DNA of 40,038 bases from an uncultured Candidatus Saccharibacteria bacterium. GTDB lineage: Bacteria > Patescibacteriota > Minisyncoccia > UBA6257 > 2-01-FULL-56-20. This document shows positions 1,038-26,866 of this stretch, one piece after another (position 1 is the first letter of the stretch; each line of letters opens with the position of its first letter). A program made the position numbers and the translations under genes. The notes under the pieces are model-generated. The model did not search any database and had not been told where the DNA came from. It saw nothing but the letters and a program-made list of their open reading frames with translations. The stretch covers positions 1-40,038 of the forward strand of contig CAYZZK010000001.1 in assembly GCA_964483045.1 (NCBI GenBank), in the 5' to 3' direction.

Positions 1038-2156
1038 TTACCGCAGCGCTACATCTTTCTCCGTGAAGACCACTCCGTTCGGCAAAACAACTCGTTTCTT
1101 GCCGTCGGGAGAGTCGCGAACCGTTCCGATGATCCACGACGAGAAGCCGAGATCGTCGGCGTAGCGCTGGGCCAACATCGCGCTCTCTTCGGGCAGAATA
1201 AAAGCATATCCCATTCCCATGTTGAATTTGTAATACATCTCCGCGTCAGAGAGGTTCGCACGTTTTTGAATGAAGCCGAAAATGGGATGAGGCCCCGGCA
1301 GCGCGTCGATTTTGTATTCTAAAGCGGCCGTGGCCCTCGCCAGTTTCGCCCATCCATGCCCGGTGTTATTGACGATCGAATGAATCTCGATGCCGGCCTC
1401 CATGCATGCATTCACTAGCGGCCCGTAGAGCAAGGTCGGCTGAAGCAGGGCTTGGCCGAATGTCTGCCCGCTGGGAATGACGGTTTGGTATCCTTCCTCG
1501 CGTAATCGCTTCGCCCGGATGTCGCGGCAGAGCGTGTGCCCGTTGTCATGGATGCCCGAGCTGCCGATTCCCAATATCTTGTCTCCGGCGCGAATGTTTT
1601 TGGATTCAATAGGGCGCTGCGGCTTGGGAAGAAATCCCCATGCGAAGCCGGCGATATCCACCGTGTCGGGGAAGATCACGTCCCGATTCATCGGAGTTTC
1701 TCCGCCCCCATAGATTGCATGGAGGTGTATGCAGGCGTTTGTCCATCCCACACCGAAGTCATGAAACCTTTTCTCTTTCCTGAACATCTCGTTGGCCCCG
1801 GCTGCAAGGTACATAAAGAAGGCAAATGGCGGGATGCCGCTCGTACTTAAATCGTTCGCAATAACAGCCACCGAAGACCAGCCGATTGCATAAAAATGCG
1901 ATATGCCCGTGGTCTCCTCGATTTCCTCGGCGATTTTATTTCGTGTTCCCAGGCCCTCGATCGTGGAACCAACATAACCCAAAGGGGTTTCGATTACATG
2001 AGCGCTTTCGCCCCGGCATCCTTCCAACTCGCTGAACCCGGGTTGATAAAAACTCTTCAGGGTTTCTCGCCCGAATTGCTGATACTGTTTTTTTACGGGA
2101 TCAATGGCGCTGTAGTCAACTGCGTATTCGATTCCCATTGTCGTTGTCATATTCAT
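1038..2156 (-). CDS. AIR synthase-related (PurM-like) protein
   Basis: 372-aa ORF. Contains PurM-family-like blocks (STIEGLGTRNKIA, IGWSSVAVIANDLSTSGIPP, GIGSSGIHDNGHTL). It is divergent from canonical PurM. Confidence 0.6.
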   Translation of the reverse strand: MNMTTTMGIEYAVDYSAIDPVKKQYQQFGRETLKSFYQPGFSELEGCRGESAHVIETPLGYVGSTIEGLGTRNKIAEEIEETTGISHFYAIGWSSVAVIANDLSTSGIPPFAFFMYLAAGANEMFRKEKRFHDFGVGWTNACIHLHAIYGGGETPMNRDVIFPDTVDIAGFAWGFLPKPQRPIESKNIRAGDKILGIGSSGIHDNGHTLCRDIRAKRLREEGYQTVIPSGQTFGQALLQPTLLYGPLVNACMEAGIEIHSIVNNTGHGWAKLARATAALEYKIDALPGPHPIFGFIQKRANLSDAEMYYKFNMGMGYAFILPEESAMLAQRYADDLGFSSWIIGTVRDSPDGKKRVVLPNGVVFTEKDVALR

Positions 2157-2310
2157 ATGTCCCTGTTGTCAATAGAAAAACAACATTGTTTTTCCTGCTT
2201 GCCAGAACCAGTCTGGAATGCTCTGCGAGCAGTTTACATTGCAACGCTTTAAAGTCAATAAAAACCTTGTTTTATTGACAGACTGTCCGCGCCGGAACTA
2301 TAGTTTGGGA

Positions 2311-2790
2311 ATGCCAGACTATCTTTTCAACTCGCTTGGGCTCAAGGTAACCGTACAAGAGGTGGTGCAAGAAATCATCTCGTTTATGCGCGCCGACGAG
2401 GAGCGGCAATACAAAGTTACCATCGGTACGGATTCACAACTGCTTCCCGGAAGCCAGGCGGATTTTGTGACGGCGGTCGTTGTGCACCGGATCGGGAACG
2501 GCGGGAAATATTTCTGGCGCCGGATGCCGAGAGAAAAAACCCACACGCTGCGTGAACGCATCGTCCGCGAGGTGTTGATTTCACTTGATATTGCGAAGGG
2601 CGTCTTGGGCGAGCTCAAGAAATTCGATCTTCCGAAATTCGATTTCGAAATTCATATTGACGTTGGCGAGAACGGTCCGACGAAGCAGTTGATTTCAGAT
2701 GTCGTTTCGCTCGTGCGCGCGAACAATTTCGAGGCGAAGACGAAGCCGGAAAGCTATGCGGCGACGAATGTGGCGGATAGGCATGTATGA
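2311..2790 (+). CDS. YkuK/DUF458-like RNase H-fold protein
   Basis: Contains KVTIGTDSQ ... DFVTAVVVHRIGNGGKYFW, typical of the family. The ORF track opens at 2218, but the ATG at 2311 (MPDYLF) is the more plausible start. Confidence 0.5.
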   Translation: MPDYLFNSLGLKVTVQEVVQEIISFMRADEERQYKVTIGTDSQLLPGSQADFVTAVVVHRIGNGGKYFWRRMPREKTHTLRERIVREVLISLDIAKGVLGELKKFDLPKFDFEIHIDVGENGPTKQLISDVVSLVRANNFEAKTKPESYAATNVADRHV

Positions 2791-2804
2791 TTTTGTTAGT
2801 TTAT

Positions 2805-2880
2805 AAGTTAACGAGTTTGCGGGTTAACGAGTTCCAGCTTCATAACGCGTTAACTCATTAACCCGTTAATCTTGTTAACT
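2805..2880. promoter_or_regulatory. Array of GTTAAC/GTTAAT/ATTAAC hexamers upstream of the exonuclease gene
   Basis: GTTAAC at 2807, 2823, 2849 and 2874; ATTAAC at 2858; GTTAAT at 2865. GTTAACGAGTT occurs as a direct repeat (2807 and 2823). Confidence 0.4.
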
Positions 2881-2887
2881 AAAAATA

Positions 2888-3460
2888 ATGGATACCCTTA
2901 TATTCGACATTGAAACGCAAAATTTTTTTACCGATCCCGGAGTTGGGCGAGATAATTTTAGCGCCCTAAAAATTTCCGTCGTCGGGATATATTCGTACGC
3001 CCAAGCAAAATATTTTTGTTTCGGCGAGGAAGAAGTTTCTAACATGGCGGAACTTTTTCGCGGAGCATCAAGGATCGTGGGATTTAGCATAAATAGATAC
3101 GACGTGCCGGTCTTGAATACGTACTTCCAAAAGTTGGGGCCTGCATCGATCAATCTGTGGAATAAAGACCGAGTGGATCTTTTGGAAGAGATCGAATCCT
3201 TAACCGGCGAGCGGGTCAGCTTGAGCCGGCTTGTGGCGGCAAATGGCGGGAAACCCAAAGACCATCATGGATCGGAAGCAATTAGTCTCTATAAAGAAGG
3301 ACGGATTGACGAGCTTAAGGAGTATTGCCTGAACGACGTAAAAATCACCAAAGATATTTATGATTTATATAAGAGAGACAGCTCGCTTCTCGTGCCGGAT
3401 AAGAAAACTGGGATCGTGGCAAAAATAATGTTCGCGAAAAAGCATCCGGCGCTGTTCTAG
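2888..3460 (+). CDS. RNase H-like 3'-5' exonuclease (DEDD family, PolB-exo/YprB-like)
   Basis: Has Exo I-like LIFDIETQ and Exo III-like YCLNDVKITKDIY motifs. 190 aa. Confidence 0.65.
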   Translation: MDTLIFDIETQNFFTDPGVGRDNFSALKISVVGIYSYAQAKYFCFGEEEVSNMAELFRGASRIVGFSINRYDVPVLNTYFQKLGPASINLWNKDRVDLLEEIESLTGERVSLSRLVAANGGKPKDHHGSEAISLYKEGRIDELKEYCLNDVKITKDIYDLYKRDSSLLVPDKKTGIVAKIMFAKKHPALF

Positions 3461-3539
3461 AGTGATGCGAATAGACTAGGCACGTGCAAATGACGCGAAT
3501 ACTGTCCTCAAAAAAGTGTCGGAAAACGTGCAGTTGTAT

Positions 3540-3567
3540 TTGACTTTTCTTGAGGAGTTGTTATAAT
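3540..3567 (+). promoter_or_regulatory. Sigma70-like promoter upstream of the DGR target gene
   Basis: TTGACT (3540-3545), a 16-nt spacer ending in TGT, then TATAAT (3562-3567). Confidence 0.5.
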
Positions 3568-3659
3568 TCCGAAGTTCTTTGAAAGCTATATTGCTCGCTT
3601 TTTCGCCCCAGCATTTAGGACATTTCTAAATCTGTGTCTTACGTGCTGCGGCGAAAAGG

Positions 3660-4346
3660 ATGAAACACAACCTTGCATGTGCGAGGCCGTTCAAGTCCGC
3701 GCCGTTAGAGATAGTTATGACAAAATCCGAACCGAAACAGCATTTCACGCTTCTCTCAACGTTGGCCGCAAATGCGAATTTGGGCCAGTTCACCACAGAA
3801 CAAATCCAAGTCGGCATTAGCGAGCCGGAGCGTGCCGGACAGGAATTCGCACTCTTTGTAGCGAATGGATTTCGGGTCCAAGCCGAGGACTTCTTCCGCG
3901 ACACCAACGAACTCACGATCCAGGTCCCTGCTCTCCCGCGACCGACGCTCACAGAGCTCCAATCGAAATTCGATTGGGTCAAGTCTATCGAACGCGATAC
4001 CTCGCCGACGGAAGCTCTGACGCTCAAACTCGCAACAGTGCTGCGAGCCGAGGAGAAAAATTTGATCAGCGGTTCTGAATATGAACGCCGCATTGAACCG
4101 AAGAAAAATCTCATCGTGGGTTACCAACATGCCTGCTGGCTCGTAGAGCACCAGGACGAATCCCCGGACCTTATGAAACTCTTAAGAAACGTCTATATAG
4201 ATTGCCCCGGGCTTGTCGTGGTGAGCTCCGATGGCCACCGGCACTATCCGTGTCTCGGCCACGATGGCAAGCGGTGGGACGTGGATTGGCGCTGGATCAG
4301 TTATGGCTTCGGCCGGCGCGGGCGTGTCGGCGTTTCCAGCAAGTAG
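3660..4346 (+). CDS. DGR target (variable) protein, N-terminal domain of unknown function
   Basis: 228-aa ORF. Its last ~42 codons are the VR. An alternative start is the ATG at 3717 (MTKSEPK). No obvious signal peptide or TM segment. Confidence 0.75.
   Translation: MKHNLACARPFKSAPLEIVMTKSEPKQHFTLLSTLAANANLGQFTTEQIQVGISEPERAGQEFALFVANGFRVQAEDFFRDTNELTIQVPALPRPTLTELQSKFDWVKSIERDTSPTEALTLKLATVLRAEEKNLISGSEYERRIEPKKNLIVGYQHACWLVEHQDESPDLMKLLRNVYIDCPGLVVVSSDGHRHYPCLGHDGKRWDVDWRWISYGFGRRGRVGVSSK
4217..4340 (+). repeat. DGR variable region (VR)
   Basis: Aligns without gaps to 4681-4804. There are 19 mismatches, all opposite TR adenines. The last 20 nt are identical and GC-rich (IMH-like). Confidence 0.9.
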
Positions 4347-4400
4347 TAAACACTGGATTTCTTGCGCCCTTGGCTTTGGCGCTTGGATTCTTAAACACTT

Positions 4401-4438
4401 TGGCCTTCCAAATCAATTTGGAAGGCCATTGAATTTTT
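4401..4438 (+). terminator. Hairpin plus T-run downstream of the target gene (terminator and/or DGR target-recognition hairpin)
   Basis: TGGCCTTCCAAA-TCAA-TTTGGAAGGCCA (4401-4428), followed by TTGAATTTTT. Confidence 0.6.
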
Positions 4439-4680
4439 GATAAAATAAATTTGGATAGTAGATTATATGTGCGTGGCTACGGTTGCGTACGATCGAATTC
4501 TGCGGCGGCATTGTCGGAATTACAGCGGAAGGAATAATCCTTTTTCTCTAAGAGTGCAGTGCTTATCCGTTTTATACTATTGCTACTTGGTGCGAAGAGC
4601 TATGGAATTAAGATTCCGAATACGATGCAGTCCTAAGAGAATTTTCAAAGGACGGTGGAATGGACGGCTTTTTGCACAAT

Positions 4681-4804
4681 CGTGGTGAACTCCGATGACA
4701 ACCGGAACTATCCGTATCTCGACAACGATGGCAAGCGATGGAACGTGAATTGGAACTGGATCAGTAATGACTTCAACCAGAACGGGCGTGTCGGCGTTTC
4801 CAGC
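4681..4804 (+). repeat. DGR template region (TR), non-coding
   Basis: Not inside any substantial ORF. It is rich in AAC/AAT codons when read in the VR frame (VNSDDNRNYPYLDNDGKRWNVNWNWISNDFNQNGRVGVSS). 34 adenines, 19 of them changed in the VR. Confidence 0.9.
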
Positions 4805-4841
4805 TATTCGCAATAGATATAGCAGCAATGCTTGGCGGGCA

Positions 4842-5177
4842 TTAACTTTTTGTTTGGTTTTTAATCCACCCGCCGAGCATTTTGCCTATTTCTTCGAGCG
4901 GTTCAGAAAGCAAGATATATTTTTTGTTATCGAGCGCTTTTATTTCCCAGCACACCTGTATGAAAAATTTTGCAAGATCTAGCTTTCCACTCGCCCGCTC
5001 GAGGTACGCAATTTTCTTTTCTTTGGCGAGATAGCTCGCGATAAAAACAGACTCAATTGTCTCAGCTAGGAGCGAGTCAATTTTCAATCCAAGAGTGTAG
5101 CGGGCGGTTTTCGGAATGTGTTGTAAAAACTCGTGCCAGAGTTTGTATGCCTGTACCAAGTGCTGAATGATTGGCAA
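4842..5177 (-). CDS. avd: Accessory variability determinant (Avd-like four-helix-bundle / 23S rRNA IVS family protein)
   Basis: 111 aa with a helical heptad-like pattern. Family-typical ...YTLGLKIDSLLAETIES... and ...LEEIGKMLGGWIK C-terminus. Apparent TTG start. Opposite strand to TR and RT. Confidence 0.75.
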   Translation of the reverse strand: MPIIQHLVQAYKLWHEFLQHIPKTARYTLGLKIDSLLAETIESVFIASYLAKEKKIAYLERASGKLDLAKFFIQVCWEIKALDNKKYILLSEPLEEIGKMLGGWIKNQTKS

Positions 5178-5185
5178 ATTCCTAA

Positions 5186-5194
5186 GGGGGGGGG
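5186..5194. repeat. G9 homopolymer in the avd/RT divergent spacer
   Basis: Nine consecutive G within the 39-nt gap between the avd start (5177, minus) and the RT start (5217, plus). Confidence 0.9.
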
Positions 5195-5216
5195 CGTTCC
5201 ATGAAAATCTTTTTGC

Positions 5217-6212
5217 ATGAAAATTCAGCTTACCTCACGTCTTAATGAAATTGCAAGCGCTGAAAATTTGCTTGGCGCATGGAGGGAGTTTGCGCGCGAC
5301 AAGCGCCGCAAAACAGATGTACAGGAGTTTTCGGCGCGACTTATACATAATCTTTTTTTGTTACGCGCTGAGCTGCACAATCATACCTATCGGCATGGCG
5401 GATATCACGCATTCAAGATTTCCGATCCTAAGCCAAGAGATATTCATAAGGCGAGTGTGCGCGACCGCGTACTGCACCACGCACTCTACCGGGTACTCTA
5501 TCCATTTTTTGAAAGGACGTTTATTGCGGATTCTTTTTCGTGCCAATTGAACAAGGGAACGCACCGAGCACTTTCTCGCTTCGAATTTTTCTCGCGGAAA
5601 GCAGGCTGCAACAATACGAAGGCCTGCTGGGTATTGAAATGCGATGTCCGGAAATTTTTTGCTTCGATTGATCACCGGGTTCTTATGGATATTCTGCGGC
5701 AGTATATACCTGACGAAGATATTTTATGGCTTCTCTGCGAGATCATCGGAAGTTTTTCTTCAACCGCGCCTGGCGTTGGTTTACCGCTTGGAAATCTCAC
5801 TTCGCAGCTTTTGGTGAACGTATACATGAACGAATTCGATCAATTTACAAAACATAAACTCAAAGTTGAATATTATGTTCGATACGCGGATGATTTTGTG
5901 ATTATGTCGAGCGAGCGATCGCGGCTCGAACATTTTCTGCCTCGCATAGAGGAATTCTTGCGTGAGCGGTTGAAACTGAATTTACACCCCGATAAAGTTT
6001 TTATACAAACACTTGTATCGGGTGTTGATTTTCTCGGATGGGTGCATTTTCCGGATCATCGGGTGTTGCGTCCTGCGACAAGACGTCGGATGTTTAGTAA
6101 GCTCAAAAGCGTTCCGAAGCCCGAAGCGGTTCATTCGTATCTAGGGTTACTGAAGCATGGAAATGCGTACAAACTCCGCCGGAAAATAGAAGAAAATTAT
6201 TGTTTCGGCTAA
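5217..6212 (+). CDS. DGR reverse transcriptase
   Basis: 331 aa. YADD catalytic motif at 5883-5894. LPLGNLTSQLLVN at about 5784-5820 (the SQxxxN signature of DGR RTs, versus QGxxxSP in group II introns). No maturase or endonuclease extension. Confidence 0.9.
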   Translation: MKIQLTSRLNEIASAENLLGAWREFARDKRRKTDVQEFSARLIHNLFLLRAELHNHTYRHGGYHAFKISDPKPRDIHKASVRDRVLHHALYRVLYPFFERTFIADSFSCQLNKGTHRALSRFEFFSRKAGCNNTKACWVLKCDVRKFFASIDHRVLMDILRQYIPDEDILWLLCEIIGSFSSTAPGVGLPLGNLTSQLLVNVYMNEFDQFTKHKLKVEYYVRYADDFVIMSSERSRLEHFLPRIEEFLRERLKLNLHPDKVFIQTLVSGVDFLGWVHFPDHRVLRPATRRRMFSKLKSVPKPEAVHSYLGLLKHGNAYKLRRKIEENYCFG

Positions 6213-26235: not shown

Positions 26236-26250
26236 AAGATTTTCTAAGTG

Positions 26251-26321
26251 AGCGGGATACCGGAATCGAACCGGCGCCCTCACCTTGGCAAGGTGACGTA
26301 CTGCCACTATACTAATCCCGC
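26251..26321 (-). tRNA. tRNA-Gly (anticodon GCC)
   Basis: Manual cloverleaf: acceptor GCGGGAT/ATCCCGC, D arm GTAT-AGTGGCA-GTAC, anticodon arm TCACC-TTGCCAA-GGTGA, T arm GCCGG-TTCGATT-CCGGT, discriminator U. CCA is not encoded. Confidence 0.9.
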
Positions 26322-26738: not shown

Positions 26739-26794
26739 CTGAATTCAATTCTAATTTCTCTATTCAATCTCAGTATTATAACATGAACTTTTTG

Positions 26795-26866
26795 TGTCCC
26801 CACGAGGAATTGAACCTCGATCTCAGCCTTCGCAGGGCTGCGCTCTATCCGTTGAGCTATGAGGAC
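26795..26866 (-). tRNA. tRNA-Arg (anticodon GCG)
   Basis: Manual cloverleaf: acceptor GTCCTCA/TGGGGAC, D arm GCTC-AACGGATA-GAGC, anticodon arm CAGCC-CTGCGAA-GGCTG, 4-nt variable loop, T arm CGAGG-TTCAATT-CCTCG, discriminator A. Confidence 0.85.

Follow-up and report, generated by a model that had tools for sequence, protein, structure and literature searches.

A diversity-generating retroelement of a Candidatus Saccharibacteria bacterium with a reversed avd gene and a predicted, separately transcribed template RNA

How can a diversity-generating retroelement (DGR) work when its accessory gene avd lies reversed between the template repeat (TR) and the reverse transcriptase (RT) gene? This question is raised by a locus in a 40,038-nt stretch of DNA, referred to here as the window, from an uncultured Candidatus Saccharibacteria bacterium (GCA_964483045.1, contig CAYZZK010000001.1, positions 1-40,038, forward strand). 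The gene order of this locus has already been catalogued and adds nothing alone; the interest lies in how that order can work. Our analysis of the sequence and of related loci indicates a complete DGR of the type found in the candidate phyla radiation (CPR), architecture B3, in which the TR is probably embedded in an RNA gene of its own of ~400 nt and is not an appendage of the RT mRNA.

The locus has the features that define a DGR, namely an RT of the DGR clade, differences between the TR and the variable repeat (VR) that are confined to adenines, a VR at the 3' end of the target gene, and an Avd protein (Table 1). In an ungapped comparison the two repeats differ at 19 positions over 125 bp, all of which (19/19) are adenines in the TR, and the similarity breaks off abruptly past 4340 and 4804. 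The final 22 nt of the repeat (the GGGCGTGTCGGCGTTTCCAGC region) are identical in the VR (4319-4340) and the TR (4783-4804), the last mismatch being at VR position 4318. These two segments are like the initiation of mutagenic homing sequences IMH and IMH* of the VR and TR, respectively; identical IMH and IMH* do occur in DGRs, as stated in the passages of Wu et al. 2018 (PMC5758913) that deal with these elements.

The RT motifs LGNLTSQ and YADD are invariant in an alignment of 30 homologues. The nearest solved structure to the RT is that of Bordetella phage bRT (8ub7, E 1.2e-42, 149.6 bits), and PDB chains deposited as 'Retron-type reverse transcriptase' scored 74-77 bits against it. Membership of the element among the retrons was considered and rejected, since the RT is nearest to bRT (149.6 bits) and the adenine signature of TR and VR is that of a DGR. 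Homologues of the RT are 57-77% identical to it and, among the matches listed, nearly all come from assemblies of Patescibacteria/CPR; the exact RT of the window is carried by one contig only. The target protein, like all 57 of its homologues, is without domain annotation, and PDB sequence searches with the target and with Avd gave no significant match. Since these homologues are 206-221 aa long, the true start of the target gene may be the ATG at 3717.

About 100 related loci were compared with the window, and they carry L-numbers as labels (L002-L107, L297-L301 and so on). In seven samples with an identical RT (L086-L092), the VR varies between samples at positions that are adenines in the TR, and on this variation the DGR family appears to be active. 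In the same loci (regions 651-736 and 1077-1103), the TR also has A versus G at five positions (columns 1077-1103), which divide the contigs into two groups. These differences may be due to assembly mixing of TR and VR reads, or they may be a real TR polymorphism.

The reversed avd gene is the rule among relatives of this element. At least 596 relatives of the RT are present in GTDB. Eighty GTDB species-representative loci were fetched and scanned with an Avd profile, and 75 of these include DNA upstream of the RT gene. In 74 of the 75, avd is on the minus strand directly upstream of the RT gene. A TR/VR pair with adenine-biased mismatches was found at the same place as in the window in 57 loci, with stereotyped distances upstream of the RT gene (VR ~1000 nt, TR ~540 nt and avd stop ~390 nt). 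In the window, 339 nt separate the VR from the TR, 37 nt the TR end from the avd stop, 39 nt the avd start from the RT start, and 412 nt the TR end from the RT gene. Among viral-contig relatives in IMG/VR, those with an RT identity of at least 46% have the order TR(+), avd(-), RT(+) and those with 37% or less have the canonical order avd(+), TR, RT.

This arrangement corresponds to architecture B3, TR-(avd)-RT, which makes up 90% of the DGRs from CPR in the architecture survey within Wu et al. 2018 (Nucleic Acids Res 46:11, PMC5758913). The window has a TR(+), a reversed avd, an RT(+) and no other accessory gene, and it shares with B3, as that survey defines it, the order, the orientation and the host group (CPR/Patescibacteria), the gene order being identical. 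By this comparison the layout of the window is a known architecture in a new genome, is the rule in its clade, and is non-canonical only relative to the DGR of Bordetella phage BPP-1. An earlier note on this DNA had described a DGR with avd inverted between TR and RT, which the coordinates and the Pfam matches to bAvd and RVT_1 confirm. It had also called the layout non-canonical; this is true relative to BPP-1 only, the layout being already published as B3 and present in 74/75 loci. The order target-TR-(reversed avd)-RT, for which the note had suggested a survey of DGR databases, is that of the B3 class of Wu et al. (PMC5758913). The account of B3 in that part of Wu et al. 2018 (PMC5758913) covers gene order without the mode of TR transcription or the structure of RNA from the spacer between VR and TR.

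Metagenome assemblies carry a general risk of error around repeats, and the inverted avd could on that ground be ascribed to an assembly or scaffolding artefact of the contig. However, the same orientation and spacing are present in 74/75 independent GTDB species representatives, and the same layout was found in contigs from IMG/VR, ENA, JGI and Logan. An assembly inversion was rejected on the basis of this shared layout, and we give it practically no chance of being the explanation.

The evidence for a separate RNA gene begins upstream of the TR, where a conserved segment, referred to here as the 5' scaffold, was predicted to fold into six helices (H1 to H6, Table 1). MAFFT was used to align 58 loci by sequence only, over a segment that begins 215 nt before the TR and ends 75 nt beyond the avd stop. 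RNAalifold predicted 51 pairs in this alignment, 47 of which have compensatory changes. Pairs were counted for 48 pairs of the RNAalifold consensus, with the three predicted pairs inside the TR excluded. At these 48 pairs, 92.9% of the cells are standard-paired, compared with 65% in shuffled alignments and 38-53% with slid partners, and 823 cells have double changes, compared with 244 in shuffles. The covariation score is 0.758, versus 0.246 for shuffled alignments and at most 0.196 for slid partners, and 0 of 500 shuffles reached the observed values.

The long-range helix H3 has compensatory changes at 7/7 pairs across the 58 loci and forms a duplex across the flanks of the TR, as in the BPP-1-type RNA. 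The family consensus of H3 is AUGAAGA with UCUUCAU, and the H3 of the window is therefore a fully compensated variant. In addition, an ACUUGG linker is conserved within the scaffold. H1 and H2 usually have C(UACG)G-type loops in the relatives; in the window only H1 has this loop.

A covariance model of the junction domain of the scaffold, designated R1, has a single match in the window (4572-4681, plus strand, 92 bits). It also matches 25 loci outside its training set, in every case just before the TR and on its strand, and viral-contig relatives down to ~55% RT identity. The clade with 46-48% RT identity, which is also of the B3 architecture, has the same organisation with a different sequence: a UNCG-type hairpin, a ACUACUUG linker, a long-range helix from the leader to the sequence after the TR, and a helix abutting the TR. 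One locus (L034) has a second DGR module within a few kb, recognized by a second scaffold match and an avd gene.

Searches of Rfam 15 at gathering and at permissive thresholds (E up to 10) gave only chance-level matches in 4340-5230, and no description of the 5' scaffold RNA was found in Rfam 15 or in the literature searched, which was without Paul et al. 2017 (Nat Microbiol). From the conservation and pairing described above, the TR appears to lie inside a conserved, self-contained structured RNA gene that appears undescribed. The sole Rfam matches in the window are tRNA-Gly(GCC) and tRNA-Arg(GCG), at 26250-26321 and 26794-26866 on the minus strand. The earlier note had proposed that a stem beyond the TR could be the structured element of the DGR RNA. 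That stem does lie at a site where DGR RNAs have a functional stem-loop, but the main structure is found at 4453-4679, upstream of the TR.

Table 1. Coordinates of the features of the DGR in the window, and of the rearranged locus L028 in its own numbering.
Feature	Position	Strand	Remarks
DGR target gene	3660-4346	+	228 aa; from the open reading frame list; no Pfam domain
VR	4216-4340	+	at the 3' end of the target reading frame, which stops 6 nt after the VR
Terminator-like hairpin of the target gene	4401-4438	+	12-bp stem and 4-nt loop (4401-4428), then T-rich run
Predicted TR-RNA promoter	4418-4446	+	-35 TTGGAA 4418-4423; TG 4438-4439; -10 TAAAAT 4441-4446
Structured 5' scaffold	4453-4679	+	~225 nt; conserved; upstream of TR; alignment of 58 loci
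H1	4469-4473 with 4486-4490	+	C(UACG)G loop
H2	4510-4514 with 4556-4560, plus 4521-4525 with 4546-4550	+	
H3 (long-range)	4577-4583 with 4810-4816	+	CUAUUGC with GCAAUAG; encloses H4 to H6 and the whole TR
H4	4590-4601 with 4666-4677	+	12 bp; ends 2 nt before TR; closes the junction that holds H5 and H6
H5	4605-4608 with 4613-4616	+	
H6	4630-4633 with 4650-4653	+	
TR	4680-4804	+	125 bp; offset 464 nt from VR
3'-terminal stem-loop	4822-4885	+	17 bp: 4822-4825 and 4827-4839 with 4869-4885
avd	4842-5177	-	111 aa; Pfam bAvd PF22296, E 4.7e-12, 46.8 bits (curated cut-off 40)
G9 homopolymer	5186-5194	+	in the 39-nt divergent avd-RT gap
DGR reverse transcriptase	5217-6212	+	331 aa; RVT_1, E 1.6e-23
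L028, whole locus	1891-5008		
L028, target	3808-3092	-	
L028, scaffold	2783-2677	-	
L028, TR	2678-2534	-	
L028, avd	1891-2481	+	
L028, RT	3992-5008	+	

The 5' end of the RNA would lie directly behind the target gene. The predicted promoter has 9 of 12 consensus matches plus the TG, and the predicted start is at ~4453. In related loci the extended -10 element clusters 28 nt upstream of H1, directly after the GC-rich hairpin and T-run of the target gene, and the strict pattern TGnTAnAAT is present in 25/46 loci versus 3.4% of control windows, a 16-fold enrichment. The hairpin at 4401-4428 overlaps the -35 element of the predicted promoter. This hairpin could be a terminator and also an inverted repeat downstream of the VR. 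Such inverted repeats are present in many DGRs, and they enhance retrohoming in BPP-1 and Legionella.

The 3' end is marked by a second hairpin. A site was scored as terminator-like when a stem of at least 6 bp with at least 3 GC pairs was followed by at least 6 T in the next 10 nt, no more than 75 nt from the TR end. Such sites are present on the plus strand in 46/58 loci, on the minus strand in 0/58, and in 2.1% of random windows. The usual form in the relatives is a 7-13-bp hairpin plus UUUUGUUUU, with stem sequences that differ between loci. It starts at a median of 13 nt past the end of the TR/VR similarity, and between -24 and +23 nt relative to the avd stop. Its position thus tracks the TR end and not the avd stop, which indicates that the hairpin belongs to the TR RNA.

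The TR RNA gene and avd are convergent, with the final 8-15 codons of avd in antisense to the hairpin and U-tract at the 3' end of the TR RNA. The codons of the avd tail, antisense of UUUUGUUUU, are almost fixed at synonymous sites (AAA over AAG 35:3 and 24:2; AAC over AAU 23:0), and the third positions of the G-K-M-L-G-G-W motif of avd and further upstream are as free as elsewhere. The synonymous constraint is confined to the codons antisense to the U-tract, and therefore RNA-level selection ends at the U-tract. These synonymous sites hardly vary among 73 homologues, and the sequence common to avd and the TR RNA is therefore constrained by both genes. Read in antisense, the U-tract of the TR RNA translates into the Lys/Asn/Gln-rich tail at the C-terminus of Avd (KNQTKS in the window, 4842-4868). 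The antisense-avd motif CCGCCGAGCAU was also considered as a primer strand like that of BPP-1, which would pair with the 3' end of the TR; this candidate was rejected, as there is no conserved complement at the TR ends elsewhere and its synonymous sites vary freely.

At this site the window has a longer stem of 17 bp. Its 29-nt loop contains a U-rich tract (4847-4862), the structure straddles the avd stop codon (4842-4844), and it is followed by AUUUUGCCUAUUUCUUC. The stem has a free energy of -28.4 kcal/mol on the plus strand (z -5.4), with 0/200 shuffles as stable. The earlier note had pointed to a 10-bp stem formed by 4830-4839 with 4869-4878; this stem is real and is the core of the longer one, and one of its pairs is a G-U on the plus strand and an A-C mismatch on the minus strand. 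The window shares the long stem with L003, L004 and L052, a subfamily with a common target type, H3 variant and short Avd tail. In this subfamily the long stem replaces the short hairpin, its 3' arm is the avd coding motif CCGCCGAGCAU, and its loop has a constant length of 28-30 nt and contains the U-tract. The stem is plausible, though not as secure as the scaffold, and the favoured reading is that of a subfamily-specific local form of the 3'-terminal hairpin.

Further members of the stem subtype were sought by an exact-pattern scan of metagenome contigs (TTGCTACTTGGTGYG), which gave only chance matches; R1 matched none of the 80 that were listed. Seven loci reached through homologues of the target protein comprise four in which no DGR is present, one complete DGR (L298), the remnant L299 and an orphan TR RNA (L301). 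The window has a second terminator candidate, a weak hairpin of 5-7 bp at 4827-4843 with the U-tract (4847-4862) behind it. Neither this hairpin nor the 17-bp stem was listed by a terminator consensus scan of the window.

The stem could instead be the terminator of avd, or a bidirectional terminator for avd and the TR RNA, as it straddles the avd stop codon and the DNA palindrome folds on the minus strand too (-25.9 kcal/mol, z -4.2). On the minus strand, however, the stem contains the A-C mismatch, and the sequence after it, AUUGCUGCUAUAU, is no U-tract. Moreover, a minus-strand terminator-like site was found in none of the 58 related loci, an A-rich run is present 5' of the hairpin in only 1/58, and the position of the hairpin goes with the end of the TR and not with the avd stop. 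An avd terminator is thus a very unlikely role for this structure.

Is the TR RNA transcribed separately from the RT gene? The earlier note had left a choice between a TR-RT co-transcript and a promoter of its own in the VR-TR spacer, with the RNA acting in trans. Three rearranged loci bear on this choice. In L028, target, scaffold, TR and hairpin form a unit that is inverted as a whole with respect to the RT gene, and the TR is still convergent with avd. The TR of L028 is on the strand opposite the RT, and thus a TR-RT co-transcript is not required. In L301 (2640-3330), a target homologue, terminator, promoter, scaffold, TR-like segment and canonical hairpin with U-tract are present with no adjacent avd or RT gene; the TR-like segment has no match to the neighbouring gene. 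L299 (2640-3100) is what remains after a deletion, its scaffold being fused to the final codons of an RT gene (SYLGLLRHGN). Taken together with the promoter, the terminator signature and the synonymous constraint, these three loci favour an autonomous, trans-acting TR RNA. Of the two models in the earlier note, the co-transcript is not required, and the promoter of its own is favoured by the predicted promoter, the scaffold, H3, the hairpin and L028.

The alternative is a single TR-RT transcript that would run antisense through avd into the RT gene. Its spacer-like RNA would include antisense-avd sequence, and the hairpin after the TR would be only a protein-binding element, as is the Avd-binding stem-loop in BPP-1, and not a terminator. 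BPP-1 does make TR and brt on one transcript and needs 140 nt downstream of the TR, and stem-loops just downstream of the TR are present in 207/278 DGRs, CPR included (Handa et al.). The window itself agrees with this alternative in having its U-tract inside the loop of a long stem, and the 200 nt upstream of the RT gene yielded no conserved promoter for it; -10-like motifs near the 39-nt gap showed no clear positional enrichment for either RT or avd. Against it are the TR on the strand opposite the RT in L028, the retention of scaffold, TR and hairpin without adjacent avd or RT in L301, the U-tract after the hairpin in 46/58 loci and the conserved structure upstream of the TR. In addition, the synonymous sites of the LGGW motif of avd and of the codons upstream of it are unconstrained. 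We consider a single transcript unlikely, with a chance that is small but appreciable.

Several points weigh against an autonomous TR RNA in the form proposed here. First, its promoter, start site and 3' end are predictions from sequence, and the strict extended -10 pattern is present in only 54% of the loci. Secondly, some read-through into the RT gene is possible, because no conserved RT promoter was found. Third, the window is without the canonical short hairpin, and termination in the window is uncertain because the U-tract is in the loop of the stem and the tail is only moderately U-rich. The stem is also weak (two mismatches, z +1.5) in L298, the closest complete relative by target protein, and a clean covariation test of the stem was prevented by one arm being avd coding sequence (LGG motif) and by the number of sequences, which is five. 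Lastly, the priming nucleotide and the matching of helices to roles in BPP-1 are suggested by analogy with Handa et al. only.

The convergent overlap with avd might itself be regulatory. The 3' ends of the TR RNA and the avd mRNA would form a duplex of at least 21-44 nt, the stem would be an antisense-control element, and the level of Avd would be coupled to that of the TR RNA by transcriptional interference or by cleavage with RNase III. In practically every locus the TR RNA and avd converge and overlap, even where the unit is inverted relative to the RT gene, from which it can be argued that the tail-to-tail arrangement is selected. However, the overlap is also explained by compaction in small CPR genomes, and the constraint shows selection on the U-tract itself and not on a longer duplex. 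A regulatory role is therefore improbable on present comparisons, and it is compatible with an autonomous TR RNA, not exclusive of it.

With an autonomous TR RNA, the following mechanism can be proposed for the locus. The helices, the positions of the promoter- and terminator-like elements and the rules of orientation are read from the aligned loci themselves, and the later steps are modelled on BPP-1. Transcription would start at the extended -10 promoter (4438-4446), directly after the terminator of the target gene. The first ~225 nt would fold into two hairpins and then a three-way junction closed by the 12-bp helix that abuts the 5' end of the TR. H3 would pair the leader with 7 nt located 3' of the TR, the TR/VR identity ending 5 nt before H3. 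With the leader closed onto the post-TR sequence by H3, the TR would thus be looped out between two helices. The RNA would end in the hairpin and U-rich tract that overlap the stop and last codons of the convergent avd, a hairpin that in the window would take the form of the 17-bp stem. Avd and RT, expressed from the adjacent divergent pair of genes, would bind the scaffold of the TR RNA in trans. Synthesis of cDNA may then begin beside H3 at the 3' end of the TR and stop at H4, at its 5' end, and the adenine-mutagenised cDNA would replace the VR.

A broader proposal is that B3 DGRs use a rearranged, autonomous noncoding RNA (ncRNA) gene of ~400 nt that consists of promoter, scaffold, TR, closing helix and terminator and acts in trans with RT and Avd, the scaffold for protein binding and positioning being 5' of the template and not 3' as in Bordetella phage, and that this gene represents an undescribed RNA family in hundreds of Patescibacteria species, with a retron-like topology in which the primer-side strand is upstream of the template. 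We regard this proposal as about evenly balanced between being right and being wrong.

Other features of the neighbourhood were also noted. Apart from the G9 homopolymer, no run of G or C in the 40-kb window reaches 7. Of the 70 runs of 8 or more in 599 kb of related loci, 63 are in the avd-RT gap, with lengths of 8-14. Nearly all loci have such a G8-G14 run in the gap, and TAGAAT often comes after it, ahead of the RT start (L002-L107). Phase variation at the poly-G tract was not apparent, as contigs of different samples with the same RT have identical tract lengths in what is a small sampling. In the window, a 14-codon open reading frame (5201-5245) has its ATG at 5201, 7 nt past the G-run. 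It overlaps the start codon of the RT gene in a different frame and may be irrelevant. L077 has a second avd within a few kb, preceded by its own poly-G run. Two genes of the RNase H superfamily lie directly upstream of the target at 2218-2790 and 2888-3460 (PF04308 RNaseH_like; PF13482 RNase_H_2, PolB-exonuclease-like). In L297 and L298 the homologues of the target are preceded by the same pair, there with one more gene (Avd-like or 23S_rRNA_IVP) in between, and L297 has kept the pair although its RT and avd are lost. This may be simple synteny and not a sign of a functional link.

A very large proportion of the known DGRs is found in CPR bacteria, yet all that is known of the mechanism derives from a single phage element, which co-transcribes TR, spacer RNA and RT. 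The minimal RNA outlined here, from 4453 to ~4866-4895, is a concrete test substrate for the cognate RT and Avd, and it predicts the helices that delimit the cDNA. In addition, the covariance model can find TR RNAs, orphan and remote ones included, in those CPR genomes in which a search for TR/VR pairs fails. Engineered targeted mutagenesis is a further reason for interest in compact DGR RNAs that act in trans.

Among known systems, the msr-msd of retrons is a self-contained ncRNA with a structured 5' part ahead of the template and a duplex of its two ends that flanks the template; reverse transcription begins beside this duplex. The window RNA resembles it in topology only, which is an analogy and not membership. 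Unlike a retron, the window has an RT of the DGR clade, a product that would replace a VR by adenine mutagenesis, and Avd, and no branched multicopy single-stranded DNA is implied. The RT-10 motif lies between the TR and RT of BPP-1 (Weinberg et al. 2017, PMC5737381; Rfam). Like the RT-10 and other RT-n motifs, the window RNA is structured and lies beside a bacterial RT gene; it differs in being upstream of the TR and in having no match in Rfam 15.

The closest comparison is with BPP-1, in which the DGR RNA consists of the 3' end of avd, the TR and a 140-nt spacer (Sp) (Handa et al., NAR 2018, PMC6182149; bioRxiv 10.1101/2023.10.23.563531). The two systems have a homologous RT (bRT 8ub7, E 1.2e-42) and Avd and an adenine-specific mutagenesis. 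In both, the template is enclosed by a duplex of TR-flanking sequences, the TR has a stem-loop just 3' of it, and UNCG-type tetraloop hairpins are present. The stem-loop 3' of the TR in the window is in the place of the Avd-binding stem-loop of the BPP-1-type RNA, and the UNCG-type hairpins H1 and H2 are alternative candidates for that role. However, avd, TR and brt are co-oriented in BPP-1 and avd is reversed in the window. The ~140-nt spacer on the RT strand between TR and RT, as in BPP-1, is absent from the window, where only 37 nt lead to the antisense avd. In the window, 97 nt lie between the TR start and the upstream strand of the enclosing helix, versus ~5-15 nt in BPP-1. The survey of Handa et al. 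spanned 40 nt upstream and 100 nt downstream of the TR (PMC6182149; bioRxiv 10.1101/2023.10.23.563531), and the upstream strand of H3 is therefore outside the 40-nt part of this span. Lastly, nearly all non-template structure of the BPP-1 RNA (Avd-binding stem-loop, primer strand, stop duplex strand, thumb ring and bRT-binding stem-loop) is 3' of the TR. In the window, by contrast, the conserved structure 5' of the TR amounts to ~225 nt, and the part beyond the TR, which ends before or inside antisense avd, to only ~80 nt. Most of the non-template scaffold is thus 5' of the template, and avd can therefore sit, reversed, in the place of the BPP-1 spacer.

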